From a virus (Duplodnaviria; Caudoviricetes): DNA of 60,860 nucleotides. Below the pieces are notes generated by a model. The model was not told the origin of the DNA and did no database searches. It was given only the letters and a program-made list of their open reading frames with translations. The translations under genes were made by a program, and so were the position numbers. Location of the stretch: positions 1 to 60,860 of IMG/VR virus record IMGVR_UViG_3300032320_000463; one strand, written 5' to 3'. Positions 925-36,523 of the stretch are shown here, one piece after another. Numbering within the stretch: position 1 is the stretch's first letter; each line of letters opens with the position of its first letter.

Positions 925-953
925 AGAAGGGGGCTTGTGCCCCCTTTTCTTTT
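925..953 (+). terminator. Rho-independent terminator after capsid gene
   Basis: GGGGGC-TTGT-GCCCCC then TTTTCTTTT. Confidence 0.8.
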
Positions 954-963
954 GGGGTATATT
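935..963 (+). promoter_or_regulatory. Putative sigma70 promoter overlapping the terminator
   Basis: TTGTGC (935-940), 17 bp, TATATT (958-963); predicted start near 970. Confidence 0.5.
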
Positions 964-970
964 GTTTTTA

Positions 971-1046
971 ATCCGGGGTTATCCGGTGCATTAGACAGTC
1001 CCGGCTGACGACATACAGACTAATGCACTTAACTTGTATGTAAGGA
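971..1046 (+). ncRNA. Candidate structured cis-regulatory leader RNA (double pseudoknot)
   Basis: Three interleaved complementary pairs: 986-994/1020-1028, 973-978/999-1004, 1011-1017/1035-1041; the last abuts SD AAGGA. Confidence 0.55.
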
Positions 1047-1052
1047 CACATC

Positions 1053-1400
1053 ATGTCAACCACCACGTTCTCCGGCCCAGTCGTATCACAAAACGGCTTT
1101 GTGGGCACCACCACTGGCAACGTCACAGGTAACGTAACAGGCAATGTCACAGGCAACGTAACCGGTAACGTAGCAGGCACAGTGACAGGCAACGTAGTTG
1201 CTACCGCTGGCTACATTCAACTCCGTACCGCTACTACAGCACAAATCGCCGCCATAGCAGACCCCGTAAATACCGTTGGTAAAGTTGCGGGTACGATTGT
1301 GTTTAACACCACTTTAGGCACATTAAAAATTGCTACAGGCGCAACTGCTGCGAGCACTTGGGTGAATGCTGACGGCACTGCCGCTGTTACACCGTCCTAA
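1053..1400 (+). CDS. Putative capsid decoration or short fibre protein with GNVT repeats
   Basis: MSTTTFSGPV start; tandem TGNV repeats; first gene after capsid. Confidence 0.6.
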   Translation: MSTTTFSGPVVSQNGFVGTTTGNVTGNVTGNVTGNVTGNVAGTVTGNVVATAGYIQLRTATTAQIAAIADPVNTVGKVAGTIVFNTTLGTLKIATGATAASTWVNADGTAAVTPS

Positions 1401-1771: not shown

Positions 1772-2266
1772 ATGACGGTCGTAGTTAACAACCCAGTCGC
1801 AGGATTCTTGGCCGCTAACTACGGCATGTTTCAGCACAACGCAACTTTGACCAATGGCGGCGCAACCACGGCAAACTTGTTTCTTTTGGACACTACTGAT
1901 TTTGCAAATGGCATTTCAGTTGTTGACACTTCTAAGGTAACGATTGCAACAGGTGGGGTATACAACTTTCAGTTTTCAGCGCAGTTTGCACGCACAGGGG
2001 GCCTTGGTTTTTCCACGGCAGAAGTTTGGCTGTCTAAAAATGGTGCCAATGTCGCAGACACCAACGGACAGGTTAACATTCCACAAAGCGGAGGCAAGAC
2101 CATTGCTGCTTGGAACTATTTGATTCAAGCAAACTCCGGAGATTATTTCCAACTATATTGGTCTAGCACGGATACCGGCTTGGAAGTTTTGTACGCAGCA
2201 GCCGGGACAAATCCAACTCGCCCCGTAACCCCTTCGGTTATCGTAACTGTGACGCAGGTTGCATAA
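1772..2266 (+). CDS. Putative C1q/BclA-like trimeric head-domain protein
   Basis: GVYNFQFSAQF...WLSKNG...AAWNY...GDYFQLYW...PSVIVTV. Confidence 0.5.
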   Translation: MTVVVNNPVAGFLAANYGMFQHNATLTNGGATTANLFLLDTTDFANGISVVDTSKVTIATGGVYNFQFSAQFARTGGLGFSTAEVWLSKNGANVADTNGQVNIPQSGGKTIAAWNYLIQANSGDYFQLYWSSTDTGLEVLYAAAGTNPTRPVTPSVIVTVTQVA

Positions 2267-2517
2267 TGGCATCCCCAGCATGGACTCGCAAAGAAGGCAA
2301 GAACCCCAAAGGCGGCTTGAACGCCAAGGGACGTGCGTCCTACAATGCAGCGAATCCGGGGAAGCCGGGGCTAAAGAGGCCTCAACCCGAGGGCGGCAGC
2401 AGGCGAGACTCTTTTTGTGCAAGGATGACTGGTATGAAGAAAAAGTTGACCAGCGCCAAAACCGCAAACGATCCAAATTCCCGAATCAATAAATCTTTAA
2501 GAGCGTGGAACTGCTGA
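2266..2517 (+). CDS. Small basic conserved phage protein (DUF6321-like)
   Basis: WTRKEGKNPKGGLNAKGR...RRDSFCARM...SLRAWNC. Confidence 0.55.
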   Translation: MASPAWTRKEGKNPKGGLNAKGRASYNAANPGKPGLKRPQPEGGSRRDSFCARMTGMKKKLTSAKTANDPNSRINKSLRAWNC

Positions 2518-2518
2518 G

Positions 2519-2731
2519 ATGAAACCCGAAACCGTTGACGTAGTGAAACAAGTTGGTGATGGCCTGTCGTTCGTAACGGCTGTAGCCACGATCACCAATA
2601 TGCTGCCCTCTATTGCCGCCCTGTTTACGATCATTTGGACAGGTATGCGAATTGCAGAAATGATTACAGGCAAAGAATTTTCTGTGCTTATTGGTTTGAA
2701 AAAGGTATCTAAAGATGCCCAGCTCAAGTAA
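2519..2731 (+). CDS. Small membrane protein
   Basis: Hydrophobic segment LPSIAALFTIIW; gene-dense context. Confidence 0.55.
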   Translation: MKPETVDVVKQVGDGLSFVTAVATITNMLPSIAALFTIIWTGMRIAEMITGKEFSVLIGLKKVSKDAQLK

Positions 2732-3215
2732 AAAGCAACATAATTTCATGGAGGCTGTGGCACATAGTCCAGCTTTTGCGAAGAAGGTGGGAGTCCCACA
2801 GTCCGTGGGCAAGGATTTTTCCAACGCGGACAAGGGCCGCAAATTTTCAAAAGGTGGTGATACTATGGCTTCAAAAATGAATCCCGGGATGATGGCAATG
2901 ATGGCCAAGAAAAAAGCCGGAGCTAAGAAAATGGCTGATGGCGGCATGACTATGGTCAATAAAGGCGGCAAAATGGTTCCAGACTTTGCTGCTGACGGCA
3001 AAGGCAAAATGGCCAAAGGCGGCATGACCAAGAAAATGGCTTCTGGTGGCATGGCTGCATCTGCAATGGGCAAAGTCAAGACAGCAGCTCCCAGCCGTGA
3101 TGGTATGGCCATGAAAGGCAAGACCAAAGGTACGCAAGTCAAGATGGCCGGTTCTGGTGTCCCCGGTGGCATCGGTTCCCGTGTGATGAAAAAAGGCGGA
3201 ATGGCCAAGTGCTAA
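2715..3215 (+). CDS. Lys/Met/Gly-rich basic protein with six xxxGG motifs
   Basis: FSKGG, MADGG, VNKGG, MAKGG, MASGG, MKKGG. Confidence 0.75.
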   Translation: MPSSSKKQHNFMEAVAHSPAFAKKVGVPQSVGKDFSNADKGRKFSKGGDTMASKMNPGMMAMMAKKKAGAKKMADGGMTMVNKGGKMVPDFAADGKGKMAKGGMTKKMASGGMAASAMGKVKTAAPSRDGMAMKGKTKGTQVKMAGSGVPGGIGSRVMKKGGMAKC

Positions 3216-3230
3216 TTTAAGGAGTCCTTC

Positions 3231-3515
3231 ATGGCTACCAAAGAGCAAATGCTTCAAGAAGCGCGGGATGAAAAAGACCGCATGAAAGCGGAAAAGGCGT
3301 ACGGCGCAGCTTTGAGAAACACCGAATACGCACCGAAAGTTGAAAAACCCAAATCTATGGGTTCCTCTGGGATGCCTAAAGTGAACGAAATGGGTGATGC
3401 TACCGGCTACAAAAAAGGTGGCATGACCGCTTCTAAACGCGCCGATGGATGTGCCCAGCGTGGCAAGACCAAAGGTACTATGGTCACCATGAAAGGCGGC
3501 GGTTACGCCTGTTAA
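3231..3515 (+). CDS. Small basic protein
   Basis: SD AAGGAG; YKKGG and RADGCAQRGKTKG motifs. Confidence 0.75.
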   Translation: MATKEQMLQEARDEKDRMKAEKAYGAALRNTEYAPKVEKPKSMGSSGMPKVNEMGDATGYKKGGMTASKRADGCAQRGKTKGTMVTMKGGGYAC

Positions 3516-3518
3516 ATT

Positions 3519-3794
3519 ATGATGGCATCCCGTGGTATGGGCGCAATCCGCGCCAGCAAAATGCCCAAGGGTACTGAAAAGGCTCGTCGGGATGACACTG
3601 ATTTCACCCAATACAAAGAGGGTGGCAAAGTCAACGCTGCTGGTAACTACACCAAACCTAGTCTGCGCAAGCGGATTGTGTCGCAGGTAAAGGCGGCGGC
3701 TACGCAAGGTACCGGCGCAGGGCAGTGGTCGGCTAGAAAAGCACAGCTTGTAGCTAAGAAATATAAAGCTGCTGGCGGGGGCTACCGTGACTAA
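3519..3794 (+). CDS. Small basic protein (DUF5872-like N-terminal module)
   Basis: YTKPSLRKRI...GQWSARKAQLVAKKYKAAGGGY. Confidence 0.6.
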   Translation: MMASRGMGAIRASKMPKGTEKARRDDTDFTQYKEGGKVNAAGNYTKPSLRKRIVSQVKAAATQGTGAGQWSARKAQLVAKKYKAAGGGYRD

Positions 3795-4125
3795 ATGGTC
3801 TGACAAGCGCAAGAAAGCTATAAACTGTGATGCCCCAAAAGGTTTCTCAGAAAAGGCACATTGCGCAAGTAAGAAAATGGCCGGTGGTGGGTTGGCTAAA
3901 CCGCAACAGTCTTTGAAGGATTGGGGTGACCAAAAATGGAGAACCAAGAGTGGAAAACCTTCTAGTAAAACGGGTGAAAGATACCTTCCAGAAGCTGCGA
4001 TTAAAAGCCTCAGCTCTTCTGAGTACGCTGCGACAACACGTGCAAAACGTGCGGGCAAAGCTAAAGGCAAGCAATTCGTAGCCCAACCCAAAACAATTGC
4101 AAAGAAAACAGCAGGGTATAGATAA
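3787..4125 (+). CDS. Small basic protein
   Basis: INCDAPKGFSEKAHC module, MAGGG, then QQSLKDWGDQKWRT...ERYLP module. Confidence 0.65.
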   Translation: MTKWSDKRKKAINCDAPKGFSEKAHCASKKMAGGGLAKPQQSLKDWGDQKWRTKSGKPSSKTGERYLPEAAIKSLSSSEYAATTRAKRAGKAKGKQFVAQPKTIAKKTAGYR

Positions 4126-36144: not shown

Positions 36145-36481
36145 AGTTGGTAAATGGTGGTGTGTGGTCGAACTTGGCACGTTTTGTTTCTCTGTATTCC
36201 CAAAGACCAGCAAGATTTGGAAACCGTTTGTCAAATAGTCGTGCAAGATATGGACTGAAATTGTTGTTGATCTTCCAAGGCCCCGTAGCTTCAGTAACTG
36301 CGGAGTGATGGCGCAAATAGTGCACGATGGTACGGGCAGAGTAGTGTTTAAAACCGCTTGATCTGATCTTAAACGCCTGATCGCAAAACGCTCCCCAAAC
36401 ATGTAAGTTGTTAGGTAACCATTTCAAAAACTCTTTGCTAAACAACTCTTCGTGTTCTTCCGCAAGCTCTAGTATGTCCAT
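36119..36481 (-). CDS. Conserved phage hypothetical protein
   Basis: HYSARTIVHYLR...KINNNFSPYLAR; SD AAGGAG. Confidence 0.7.
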   Translation of the reverse strand: MDILELAEEHEELFSKEFLKWLPNNLHVWGAFCDQAFKIRSSGFKHYSARTIVHYLRHHSAVTEATGPWKINNNFSPYLARLFDKRFPNLAGLWEYRETKRAKFDHTPPFTNYEQQRLFP

Positions 36482-36523
36482 GACAGTCTCCTTTGGAAAG
36501 CGGGTTTCCCCGCTCCCGTTTAC

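Follow-up and report, generated by a model that had tools for sequence, protein, structure and literature searches.

What kind of RNA is placed by a lake phage between its capsid gene and the gene that follows? The window, that is the whole stretch of 60,860 nucleotides analysed here, is a complete phage genome of 60.9 kb and of lake origin, and a megablast search of phage records gave no match to it. Positions 1-903 of the + strand carry the 3' portion of the gene for the major capsid protein, of the Mu gpT type (stop codon 901-903). The capsid reading frame matched Pfam Phage_capsid_4 (53.9 bits) and Mu-like_gpT (PF10124; 35.8 bits, cut-off 20.1), was assigned to phrog_371, and shares 73% and 63% amino acid identity with the capsid proteins of Planktothrix phage Pag-Yong1 and Pelagibacter phage HTVC023P, respectively. 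The leader starts 70 nt downstream from the capsid stop codon, and covariance models detected a single copy of it in the genome. As judged from compensating mutations in relatives, the approximately 75 bases 5' of the first post-capsid gene are a real, doubly knotted RNA, which probably controls the synthesis of a capsid-surface protein.

Transcription unit and fold of the leader

The capsid-gene terminator (926-953, + strand) consists of a G+C stem (929-934/939-944), a loop (935-938) and a T-run (945-953), and a homologous hairpin with a T-run is located after the capsid stop in relatives. A sigma-70-like promoter was found on the same strand at 935-963, with the −35 element TTGTGC (935-940) located within the loop and the 3' arm of the terminator, a 17-nt spacer, and the −10 element TATATT (958-963). 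From the position of this promoter, the transcript is predicted to start at A970 or A971. The score of the promoter against the consensus was 8/12, and a consensus scan with a cut-off of 9/12 called neither this promoter nor the capsid terminator. A score of at least 8/12 was obtained for 32 of 71 distinct relatives, compared with 12% of shuffled sequences; among those 32, the −35 element starts with TTG in 27 and the distance from the end of the −10 element to the first helix of the leader (P1, see below) is 8-9 nt in 24. As the earlier note proposed, promoter and terminator overlap, and relatives show this arrangement again, with the distance fixed. On the other side of the downstream gene, a terminator-like hairpin with a T-run (1410-1428, + strand) closes a one-gene unit. 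Such a terminator is not universal: among 51 distinct relatives it follows the downstream gene in 13, compared with 8 of 370 control windows.

RNA runs were surveyed for contigs of relatives with at least 85% likeness. The summed depth was 0.65-7.6 in the bin 871-957 and 0-33 in the bin 958-1044, to be read with the caveats that the variable spacer may align poorly and that RNA libraries can contain DNA. One RNA contig of X15 spans 982-1100 and includes both leader and open reading frame, another ends at 964, and an X16 contig carries adapter-like letters joined at 982.

Four helices can be read from the leader sequence, all on the + strand. P1 is formed between strand a (973-978), located 2-3 nt downstream of the predicted start of the RNA, and strand a' (999-1004), with five Watson-Crick pairs and one G-U pair. 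P2, between strands b (985-994) and b' (1020-1029), includes nine Watson-Crick pairs (986-994/1020-1028) and the wobble pair G985-U1029. The mini-hairpin Px (996-1007) has a 3-bp stem (996-998/1005-1007), and its 6-nt loop (999-1004) is the 3' strand of P1. It is followed by the junction ACG (1008-1010), of which A-C is semi-conserved in the alignment columns; the flanks GA ... AC are also present in the consensus of the Rfam family RF03012. P3, between strands c (1011-1018) and c' (1034-1041), includes seven Watson-Crick pairs (1011-1017/1035-1041) and the wobble pair G1018-U1034, and its 3' strand directly abuts the Shine-Dalgarno (SD) sequence AAGGA (1042-1046). This SD and the start codon ATG (1053-1055) are located outside all four helices. 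The three helices claimed earlier (P1, P2 and P3) are thus all present, in the order a-b-a'-c-b'-c' that had been described; with Px included, the full order is a-b-x-a'-x'-c-b'-c'. Unpaired junction positions are few and semi-conserved (A/G then A; A then C/U; n-G-A or n-A-A). The minimum free energy of nested folding was −19.8 kcal/mol (z = −0.49) and 54 of 200 shuffled sequences folded equally well; folding energy is uninformative for this leader, because the energy model is blind to pseudoknots.

The earlier note had made its proposal depend on conservation and covariation of the helices in relatives, and compensatory changes were found in every helix. In alignment A1, made by MAFFT only from 42 sequences, 76.9% of cells were paired, compared with 33-40% when the partners were slid, and 20 of 26 pairs had changed on both sides; none of 500 shuffles reached the score of this alignment. 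For the four helices in alignment A3, the corresponding values were 84.3% against 32-44%, with both-side changes in 22 of 24 pairs. P1 and P3 were tested independently on an alignment built by a model that knew only P2 and Px: 74.4% of cells were paired, against 33-52%, and 10 of 11 pairs had changed on both sides (0/500 shuffles). On this same alignment, 80-88% of P1 cells were paired, with both-side changes in four of five pairs. Changes on both sides were observed for all 10 pairs of P2 (89% of cells paired) and all six pairs of P3 (66%), the low value for P3 being due to register shifts retained in the alignment. When P2 and Px were examined together in 88 distinct sequences from the lake, ocean and roseophage sets, 93.1% of cells were paired, compared with 22-39% when the partners were slid. 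G-U pairs are numerous on the + strand, which fits RNA rather than DNA.

Of two hairpins that had been suggested to compete with this fold, only one can be retained as a competitor. The CCGG/CCGG hairpin (973-986, + strand; 973-976 with 983-986) is an alternative partner of the 5' strand in one clade, and it covaries. At least four Watson-Crick pairs were detected for it in 26 of 56 distinct leaders, compared with 5% in swap controls, including 19 of 20 CCGGG-type leaders; compensating variants were present in seven others, and it is absent in the other P1 types. The second, CAG/CTG (996-998/1005-1007), is real, but it is the fourth conserved helix Px and not a competitor. It is paired in all 73 distinct sequences, with three types of middle pair (U-A in 33, A-U in 32 and C-G in 8), and in all 88 sequences of the lake, ocean and roseophage collection.

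The clade-specific alternative pairing of strand a would agree with a small-molecule riboswitch, in which a ligand stabilizes the H-type pseudoknot and alters the access of ribosomes. In topology the leader resembles preQ1-II and SAM-II/SAM-V, pseudoknot riboswitches acting on the SD, as each is a compact pseudoknot with its 3' strand reaching the ribosome-binding site, and a sister RNA, Mu-gpT-DE (see below), is laid out like an OFF switch. The leader differs from these riboswitches, however, in its variable junction bases, where known aptamers keep many invariant unpaired bases, and in its context, a virion-protein gene being an unusual target. No curated aptamer model among the known riboswitch classes of Rfam 15 matched the leader, and the SD stays outside the fold in the window. 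With its unpaired positions few and semi-conserved, the riboswitch reading of the earlier note is unlikely.

Double pseudoknots occur also in HDV-like and twister ribozymes, and a self-cleaving ribozyme, or an RNase-processing element, trimming the 5' end was considered. The sequence CUGACGA at 1005-1011 resembles half of the hammerhead core, and in two runs, contigs of relatives from RNA libraries start close to 979-982, which is a very weak indication; against this, the linker around 979-982 is not conserved. As a hammerhead the leader was rejected, since the would-be U4 is part of the covarying Px pair (U in 32, A in 33 and another base in 8 of 73) and there is no GAAA partner. An HDV-like ribozyme was likewise rejected: its nested double pseudoknot has the order P1-P2-P3-P3'-P1'-P4-P4'-P2', from which the strand order of the leader differs. 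The Rfam models for hammerhead, HDV, twister, pistol and hatchet ribozymes gave no match on the leader, and a processing role of this kind appears very improbable.

Distribution among phages and relation to Mu-gpT-DE

With three covariance models built here (R1, R2 and R3), we analysed 240 fetched loci, 80 each from close relatives (set A), HTVC023P-like loci (set B) and CRP-902-like loci (set C). The leader was detected in 73 loci of set A, one copy each and always on the + strand. Of the 74 matches, that in the window included, 32 were not among the seeds. Model R3 detected it in 38 loci of set B and 20 of set C, and in total, by these models, the large form is carried by at least 131 of the 240 loci. 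Pelagibacter phage HTVC023P and phage DSL-LC04 carry it as well. The fold is kept across phages of widely differing hosts. All 74 matches are located directly 5' of an SD and a start codon, save where the contig ends. In some relatives a gene is inserted after the capsid gene and the motif is found 0.7-1 kb farther downstream; the leader travels with the downstream gene rather than with the capsid terminator.

Seven loci of set A gave no match. Two of these (L002 and L038) end 81 and 38 nt past the capsid stop, three (L012, L062 and L067) cover only 0.4-0.7 kb beyond it, and for the remaining two (L037 and L079) more than 1.4 kb was available, yet no match was obtained. The stretches fetched for Pag-Yong1, Alcaligenes phage vB_Af_QDWS535, Manatee Spring ct2G2228 and Caulobacter phage GB2A matched none of R1, R2, R3 and RF03012; post-capsid intervals of these four are short or different. 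In HTVC027P and 023Pt_psg01, four helices can be drawn by eye before a TTF-type gene, and these two were left uncounted as no model matched. A strict parser (score of at least 49), used for spacing statistics only, accepted none of 250 reverse-complement and none of 249 shuffled controls; it recovered 47, 12 and 15 of 80 loci per set, a low recovery because perfect helices were demanded.

A search of Rfam, proposed in the earlier note as a check, gave no family that matches the leader. The earlier statement that it could not be assigned to a known class holds insofar as RF03012 does not score, but not with respect to position and topology, for which Mu-gpT-DE is the counterpart. Mu-gpT-DE is the Rfam family RF03012, a model of 53 positions typed as 'Gene; sRNA' with a gathering cut-off of 49 bits. 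It detected nothing in 800-1300 of the window at E≤10, and its best match in the whole genome (10.2 bits against the cut-off of 49; 36479-36504, − strand) is away from the leader. At E≤1 there was no match in 10 diverse loci of the large form (type L), and none of five type-L loci passed the cut-off. As the positive control, CRP-902 scored 72.3 bits; among 20 loci of set C, 10 passed. Conversely, model R3 matched no Mu-gpT-DE-type locus at E≤0.01. The core of R1 (positions 21-55) matched the cores of the small form (type S) in nine loci with 15.9 bits. Annotation based on Rfam at present misses the larger form.

Both RNAs follow a gpT-type capsid gene and its terminator and directly precede a gene for a protein with the N-terminus M-x-x-(S/T)-T-F-x-G-P; in Roseobacter phage CRP-902 and its relatives, Mu-gpT-DE is the RNA that stands before this gene family, and the location downstream of a Mu gpT-type head gene was found also in the window. 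They share the core, in the order of b, an unpaired A, a C-N-G...C-N'-G hairpin, A-C, a 7-nt c, n-G-A, b', a linker and c', and the inner hairpin (C-N-G/C-N'-G with G-A before and A-C after) is present at 994-1009 of the window. They also occur in the same phage lineages, sometimes behind capsid genes 96-98% identical to each other, which makes it plausible that one reader serves the core common to both forms. From this comparison of sequence and topology, we consider that the leader is an unrecognised larger variant of the Mu-gpT-DE kind with the same core topology.

The two forms differ in how they meet the start of the gene. In Mu-gpT-DE, b' is the SD itself (CCUG with CAGG), whereas b' of the window (1020-1029) is located 13 nt upstream of the unpaired SD. 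Strand c of Mu-gpT-DE, in a reading made here outside Rfam's structure line, pairs with the start codon together with codon 2, whereas c of the window pairs upstream of the SD (1034-1041). In support of this reading, c of Mu-gpT-DE covaries with codon 2 (GCC-GCU in 19 and CCC-GGU in 7), with no exception among 26 distinct sequences. P2 is 9-10 bp long in the form of the window and 4-5 bp in Mu-gpT-DE, and the total length is approximately 70-80 nt compared with 53. The clamp P1, in which the loop of the 3-bp hairpin pairs with an added 5' strand, is not present in Mu-gpT-DE. Some minimal Mu-gpT-DE forms (13 of 40 distinct sequences) sit 2-8 nt after the terminator T-run, leaving no room for a promoter, and 5'-end clamping therefore cannot be the function shared by both forms. 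A link between the presence of P1 and that of a promoter was weakened, as long-hairpin forms of Mu-gpT-DE also carry a −10-like box about 8 nt upstream, and it is only the minimal forms that abut the terminator.

The term 'Mu-gpT' is absent from the main text of PMC5737381, of which the supplements may contain the motif. According to a published remark, the Rfam and ZWD versions of Mu-gpT-DE differ. The portion of PMC10690425 consulted describes more than 10,000 candidate RNAs from IMG/VR, some of them upstream of genes for the major capsid protein and gp32; the leader is not mentioned there among the candidates discussed, and the supplements may contain it. No title or abstract on an RNA motif was found for HTVC023P, and at this level of titles and excerpts the literature search found nothing on this RNA.

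The ribosome-binding site, the downstream protein and a possible operator

The downstream gene (1053-1400, + strand) encodes a protein of 115 amino acids with a conserved N-terminus of the TTFSGPV type, GNVT repeats and a variable remainder. It belongs to no Pfam or PHROG family. Eight downstream proteins gave nothing in PHROG and Pfam, save for a weak spanin-like match of one, and a PDB sequence search with three of them gave no match. Look-alikes of the downstream protein in the atlas were viral hypothetical proteins, with PTL_trimer as a lead. The gene is annotated as 'cement protein' in DSL-LC04 and as 'minor capsid protein' in Pag-Yong1. For an AF2 model of a sister subfamily, the best Foldseek matches were a Pam1 capsid unit and the cement proteins of KHP30 and KHP40. 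The product is thus predicted to belong to a family resembling capsid-surface (cement or fibre-like) proteins, in line with the decoration protein suggested earlier, with the assignment made through this sister-subfamily model of pLDDT 61 and not through the 115-aa protein of the window. The downstream proteins are hypervariable past about 20 N-terminal residues; anchoring to the capsid would be enough to account for the conserved N-terminus.

The analysis supports the earlier description of a structured leader that runs up to the SD preceding the next gene for a virion protein. The start of the first SD-like word was located in 66 distinct leaders: immediately after P3 in 34, within P3 in 19, and 1-5 nt beyond it in 13. 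Since SD and AUG are free in the window, the fold by itself would not repress, and the data would agree just as well with a purely constitutive role. The knot would then act with neither ligand nor partner, hiding the 5' end from decay (RppH, RNase E) and insulating the SD, and the SD-anti-SD duplex would stack on P3, giving a fixed high output of an abundant virion protein. Stabilizing 5' hairpins are known in the ompA and T7 gene 10 leaders. Such a role agrees with the distance of P1 from the −10 element (8-9 nt for 24 of the 32 best promoters), a spacing that would leave approximately 1-3 unpaired 5' nucleotides, and with the frequent start of the SD right after P3, the few conserved unpaired bases, the maintenance of the fold in widely differing hosts, and the one-gene unit between two terminators. 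However, a simple hairpin would do for this purpose, and four covarying helices kept over such distance argue for a recognised shape; moreover, Mu-gpT-DE buries SD and start codon, which points to repression rather than enhancement, and some sister forms are not located at the 5' end. We regard the constitutive role as possible, with a probability well short of even.

For such protection of the 5' end, exoribonuclease-resistant RNAs of RNA viruses (PMC12397905, consulted in part) offer a parallel, in that a 5' strand and a 3' tail pair into a closed inner loop on the 5' side of the protected RNA. The strand partners differ, and a ring or a resistance to nucleases would be hypothetical for the leader; PMC12397905 contains no phage example ('phage' 0 occurrences).

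The leader begins at the predicted transcript 5' end, just past the promoter and amid several terminators, and the Rfam label of Mu-gpT-DE is 'Gene; sRNA', as might be expected for an RNA acting elsewhere than on its own ribosome-binding site, such as a put-like element for polymerase read-through or a trans-acting or decoy RNA. This is quite unlikely, however, as the element is always fused directly to SD and gene in the 74 matches, contig ends excepted, the SD offset is fixed, and a terminator follows the gene in just 13 of 51 relatives. Neither a second copy nor a target was found in the genome.

Our tentative preference, held at somewhat less than even probability, is for a cis-acting translation operator for the capsid-cement-like protein, made of four helices and two interlocked pseudoknots. 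Pseudoknots or autoregulation are well known for T4 gene 32, E. coli rpsO/S15, the alpha operon/S4 and the P22 scaffolding protein. The leader shares with the operators of the first three a pseudoknotted structure at or beside the ribosome-binding site of a gene for an assembling protein, with the shape conserved most; it differs in that there is no sequence or model relationship and its SD is outside the knot. In this proposed operator, host sigma-70 RNA polymerase would start at about 970, the 5' strand would be clamped into the Px loop through P1, and P2 and P3 would form an H-type pseudoknot with the last strand abutting the SD. The compact shape may serve as the operator, at which a bound macromolecule would block or trap the 30S subunit. 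The likeliest binder would be an unassembled structural protein, either the conserved N-terminal part of the product or the capsid protein, and synthesis of the cement protein would then follow capsid assembly; the protein-responsive leader suggested in the earlier note is likewise putative. As the unpaired junction bases are only semi-conserved, a specific reader would find little sequence to recognise. In the absence of a bound factor, the SD would remain accessible, and pairing of the 5' end would retard 5'-end-dependent decay.

A wider and more doubtful proposal is that this knot and Mu-gpT-DE are one widespread class of assembly-feedback operator, whose shared three-helix core at the ribosome-binding site would be recognised by capsid-surface or capsid protein not yet assembled. 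In podophages that are among the most abundant in aquatic habitats, cement synthesis might thereby be adjusted to capsid production, with the P1 clamp doubling as a nuclease-resistant mRNA cap. The orphan Mu-gpT-DE, typed as an sRNA, and its larger sister form are now placed in the leader of one gene family, and with the ribosome-binding site being part of the pseudoknot or touching it, the question becomes one of control at the level of translation. Cultured phage-host pairs exist for both forms: HTVC023P with Pelagibacter HTCC1062 for the large form, and, for the small one, CRP-902 with Roseobacter FZCC0083. As the phages that carry these RNAs are abundant and can be cultured, a functional test is feasible and ecologically relevant.

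Interlocked helices and their covariation

The window record, 60,860 bp long and bounded by direct terminal repeats, is a complete virus; its plus-strand positions 1-903 hold the 3' portion of a gene for a Mu gpT-type major capsid protein (Pfam Mu-like_gpT, 35.8 bits; Phage_capsid_4, 53.9 bits; phrog_371). Among named relatives, the closest capsids were those of Planktothrix phage Pag-Yong1 and Synechococcus phage MinM2 (73% at the amino acid level), followed by phage DSL-LC04 and Pelagibacter phages HTVC023P and HTVC027P (63%) and Roseobacter phages CRP-901/902 (56-57%). The capsid stop codon is followed, on the same strand, by a terminator composed of a G+C hairpin and a T-run (929-953), the leader, an ORF of 115 amino acids directly downstream of it (1053-1400), and a second terminator-like site (1410-1428). 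The leader elements described in the earlier note were all located in the sequence at the same positions: the promoter-like TTGTGC (935-940) and TATATT (958-963) with a 17-nt spacer, the three interlocked helices P1 (strands a/a', 973-978/999-1004), P2 (b/b', 986-994/1020-1028) and P3 (c/c', 1011-1017/1035-1041), and the Shine-Dalgarno (SD) site AAGGA (1042-1046) before the ATG at 1053. The nested folding energy gave no support for the leader (z = -0.49; 54 of 200 shuffles folded equally well), the energy model being blind to crossing helices.

Searching IMG/VR with the capsid protein gave at least 600 matching stretches, of which the best 80 loci (87-98% amino acid) were retained as set A. 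Most of them carry a similar post-capsid interval, in which the helix strands change sequence and complementarity is kept. When 42 leaders were aligned by MAFFT alone, with no structure fitted, the four helices (P1, P2, P3 and the small hairpin Px) were paired in 76.9% of cells, compared with 33-40% when helix partners were slid; 20 of 26 pairs had changed on both sides, and the covariation score was reached by none of 500 shuffles. Two covariance models were then built, R1 with only P2 and Px, and R2 with only P1 and P3. R1 gave a single match in the window (970-1051, 86.5 bits) and one match each in 73 of the 80 set A loci, all on the plus strand, with 32 of the 74 matches being non-seed. 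On the R1-made alignment P1 and P3, which are absent from that model, were paired in 74.4% of cells (33-52% slid), with both-side changes in 10 of 11 pairs (0/500 shuffles). R2 recovered the same 74 places, and on its alignment all four helices were paired in 84.3% of cells (32-44% slid), with both-side changes in 22 of 24 pairs. On this alignment Px showed three pair types and was paired in every one of the 73 distinct sequences; P3 was paired in 66% of cells, a lower bound because register shifts persist. G-U pairs are frequent on the plus strand, in agreement with an RNA read in the gene direction. In one relative (L068:2565-2656) the Px loop is 9 nt longer through an insertion, yet still complementary to that relative's own, different 5' strand.

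The leader was also detected by both R1 and R2 in HTVC023P (L082 4985-5067) and DSL-LC04 (L083 4947-5031). Among 80 loci around HTVC023P-like capsids (set B) and 80 around CRP-902-like capsids (set C), R1 found 35 and 29 places, respectively, at E≤1. A broader model, R3, built on 98 matches, found 38/80 and 20/80 at E≤0.01; most were R3 seeds, and four in set B were new. P2 and Px were paired in 93.1% of cells of the R3 seed (88 distinct sequences; 22-39% slid), and P1 is represented over the sets by a dozen or more complementary strand pairs.

Relation to Mu-gpT-DE

The earlier note could not assign the leader to a known class, and an Rfam scan at E≤10 gave no match on it, but its core plan is common to Mu-gpT-DE (RF03012; 53 positions, cut-off 49 bits). 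RF03012 did not match the window leader, its best whole-genome score being 10.2 bits at another place. It matches CRP-902 at 72.3 bits (L085 3490-3542), ending on the ATG, between the terminator of the gpT capsid gene and a gene whose product starts MATSTFSGPI. At its own cut-off it recognized 10 of 15 loci with this small form and none of five tested with the large, window-type form; conversely, the R1 core positions match nine small-form loci weakly (15.9 bits, E 0.69). The small-form pattern was present in 58 of 81 set C sources (26 distinct sequences).

Both forms share the order b, one unpaired A, a C-N-G/C-N'-G hairpin, A-C, a 7-nt c, n-G-A, b', linker and c'. The small form uses the SD itself (CAGG-AG) as b', and its c strand complements the start codon plus codon 2; both SD and AUG are therefore sequestered. 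The c strand has GCC with codon 2 GCU (19 distinct) or CCC with GGU (7 distinct), with no exception among the 26; this start-codon pseudoknot, seen at L085:3490-3560 and at the small-form loci among L171-L250, is absent from Rfam's structure line for RF03012. In the large form, by contrast, P2 is longer, Px is down to 3 bp with its loop paired by an added 5' strand (P1), and b' and c' both lie just upstream of the SD. We found no Rfam 15 match and no prior description of the large form in the literature searched, of which supplementary files possibly hold one. Judged from its plan, the leader would be classed as an unrecognized larger variant of the already catalogued Mu-gpT-DE kind.

Capsid genes 96-98% identical to that of CRP-902 precede either form (large, L171-L188; small, L178, L189 and CRP-902 itself), indicating that leader and gene are exchanged as a cassette. 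Carriers of the two forms with near-identical capsids have different downstream genes.

The 5' end, the ribosome-binding site and possible function

Leader anatomy was taken from 67 distinct large-form leaders passing a strict parser. The first SD-like word starts at the next base after P3 in 34 of 66, within P3 in 19 and 1-5 nt later in 13. The comparison shows that a four-helix fold is conserved and joined to the ribosome-binding site of one gene family; we infer that the leader acts in cis on translation initiation.

A promoter of at least 8/12 preceded 32 of 71 leaders, compared with 12% of shuffles, and in 24 of these 32 the end of the -10 box lies 8-9 nt from P1, which is therefore predicted to begin about 1-3 nt from the RNA 5' end; the predicted start in the window is A970/A971. 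Full TTGCAx-17-TATAAx promoters occur among leaders that do not adjoin the capsid terminator. According to a published account (PMC12753301, section 12), HTVC027P is without a polymerase of its own, with which the use of a host sigma-70 promoter agrees. The -35 hexamer in the window extends from the loop of the capsid terminator (929-944) into its 3' arm, and the loop CTTG(T/C)GC was found again in many relatives. In RNA-library contigs of relatives, one end at 964 and two beginnings at about 979-982, one with adapter-like letters, are too weak to place the RNA end. The CCGG/CCGG hairpin, a competing structure in the earlier note, gives strand a a different pairing partner; it occurs in 26 of 56 distinct leaders, compared with 5% of swap controls. 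It is found only in the CCGGG-related clade, with compensating variants there, and lies outside the core common to both forms; it may be a folding intermediate or a switch.

The free SD in the window fits a constitutive role, in which the leader would protect the 5' end and present the SD. Some minimal small forms, however, lie 2-8 nt after the terminator T-run (13 of 40 distinct), leaving no space for a promoter, and thus a function common to both forms cannot need a 5' end. We regard the constitutive role as rather unlikely, if nearly as likely as the following reading. The leader is tentatively considered to be an operator: a macromolecule, most simply an unassembled structural protein, would recognize it at the ribosome-binding site and thereby control translation initiation of the downstream gene. 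An operator is favored because protein-binding leaders typically combine an elaborate shape with few conserved unpaired bases, because the small sister form buries SD and AUG, and because the interchange of both forms behind near-identical capsids suggests one reader of the common core. Readings as a riboswitch, a ribozyme or a trans-acting RNA are minor.

The downstream gene and its product

In loci with an additional gene inserted downstream of the capsid gene (e.g., L009, L029 and L047), the leader lies 0.7-1 kb further down, still directly before SD and ORF, indicating that it belongs to the downstream gene. The ORFs after the leader are highly variable (60-250 amino acids), with common N-termini of the types M-x-x-T-T-F-S-G-P-V, MGFATHLGPW and M-A-x-S-T-T-Q-S-I-W. 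Pfam and PHROG searches of eight downstream proteins gave no match beyond a weak spanin-like one for a single protein, and a PDB sequence search of three of them gave none; isolate records label the gene 'cement protein' in DSL-LC04 and 'minor capsid protein' in Pag-Yong1. For the MGFATHLGPW subfamily, AF2 (12 sequences, pLDDT 61.3) predicted a beta-sandwich, the best Foldseek matches of which were chain 7eel_H of the Pam1 capsid unit (E 6e-5) and KHP30/KHP40 capsid and cement chains. The 115-amino-acid product of the window looks fibre-like, with GNVT repeats and a PTL_trimer lead. Taken together, this makes a capsid-surface protein likely, rather than proven, for the window. The 12-nt units encoding GNVT run from 1108 to 1195; extra letters between units in one RNA-library contig of a relative suggest that repeat number may vary.

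Small Lys/Gly/Ala-rich ORFs (about 70-170 amino acids) lie in series at 2266-4125, after the first three post-capsid genes, and are possibly internal virion proteins. A different post-capsid gene, with a product starting MD/E..P.TR.EA, has its own conserved leader hairpin of the CCTG...CAGGAGG type, the 3' arm of which runs into the SD, within the first ~120 nt after the capsid stop codon (L009, L029, L037, L042, L050, L053, L056 and L065-L068).
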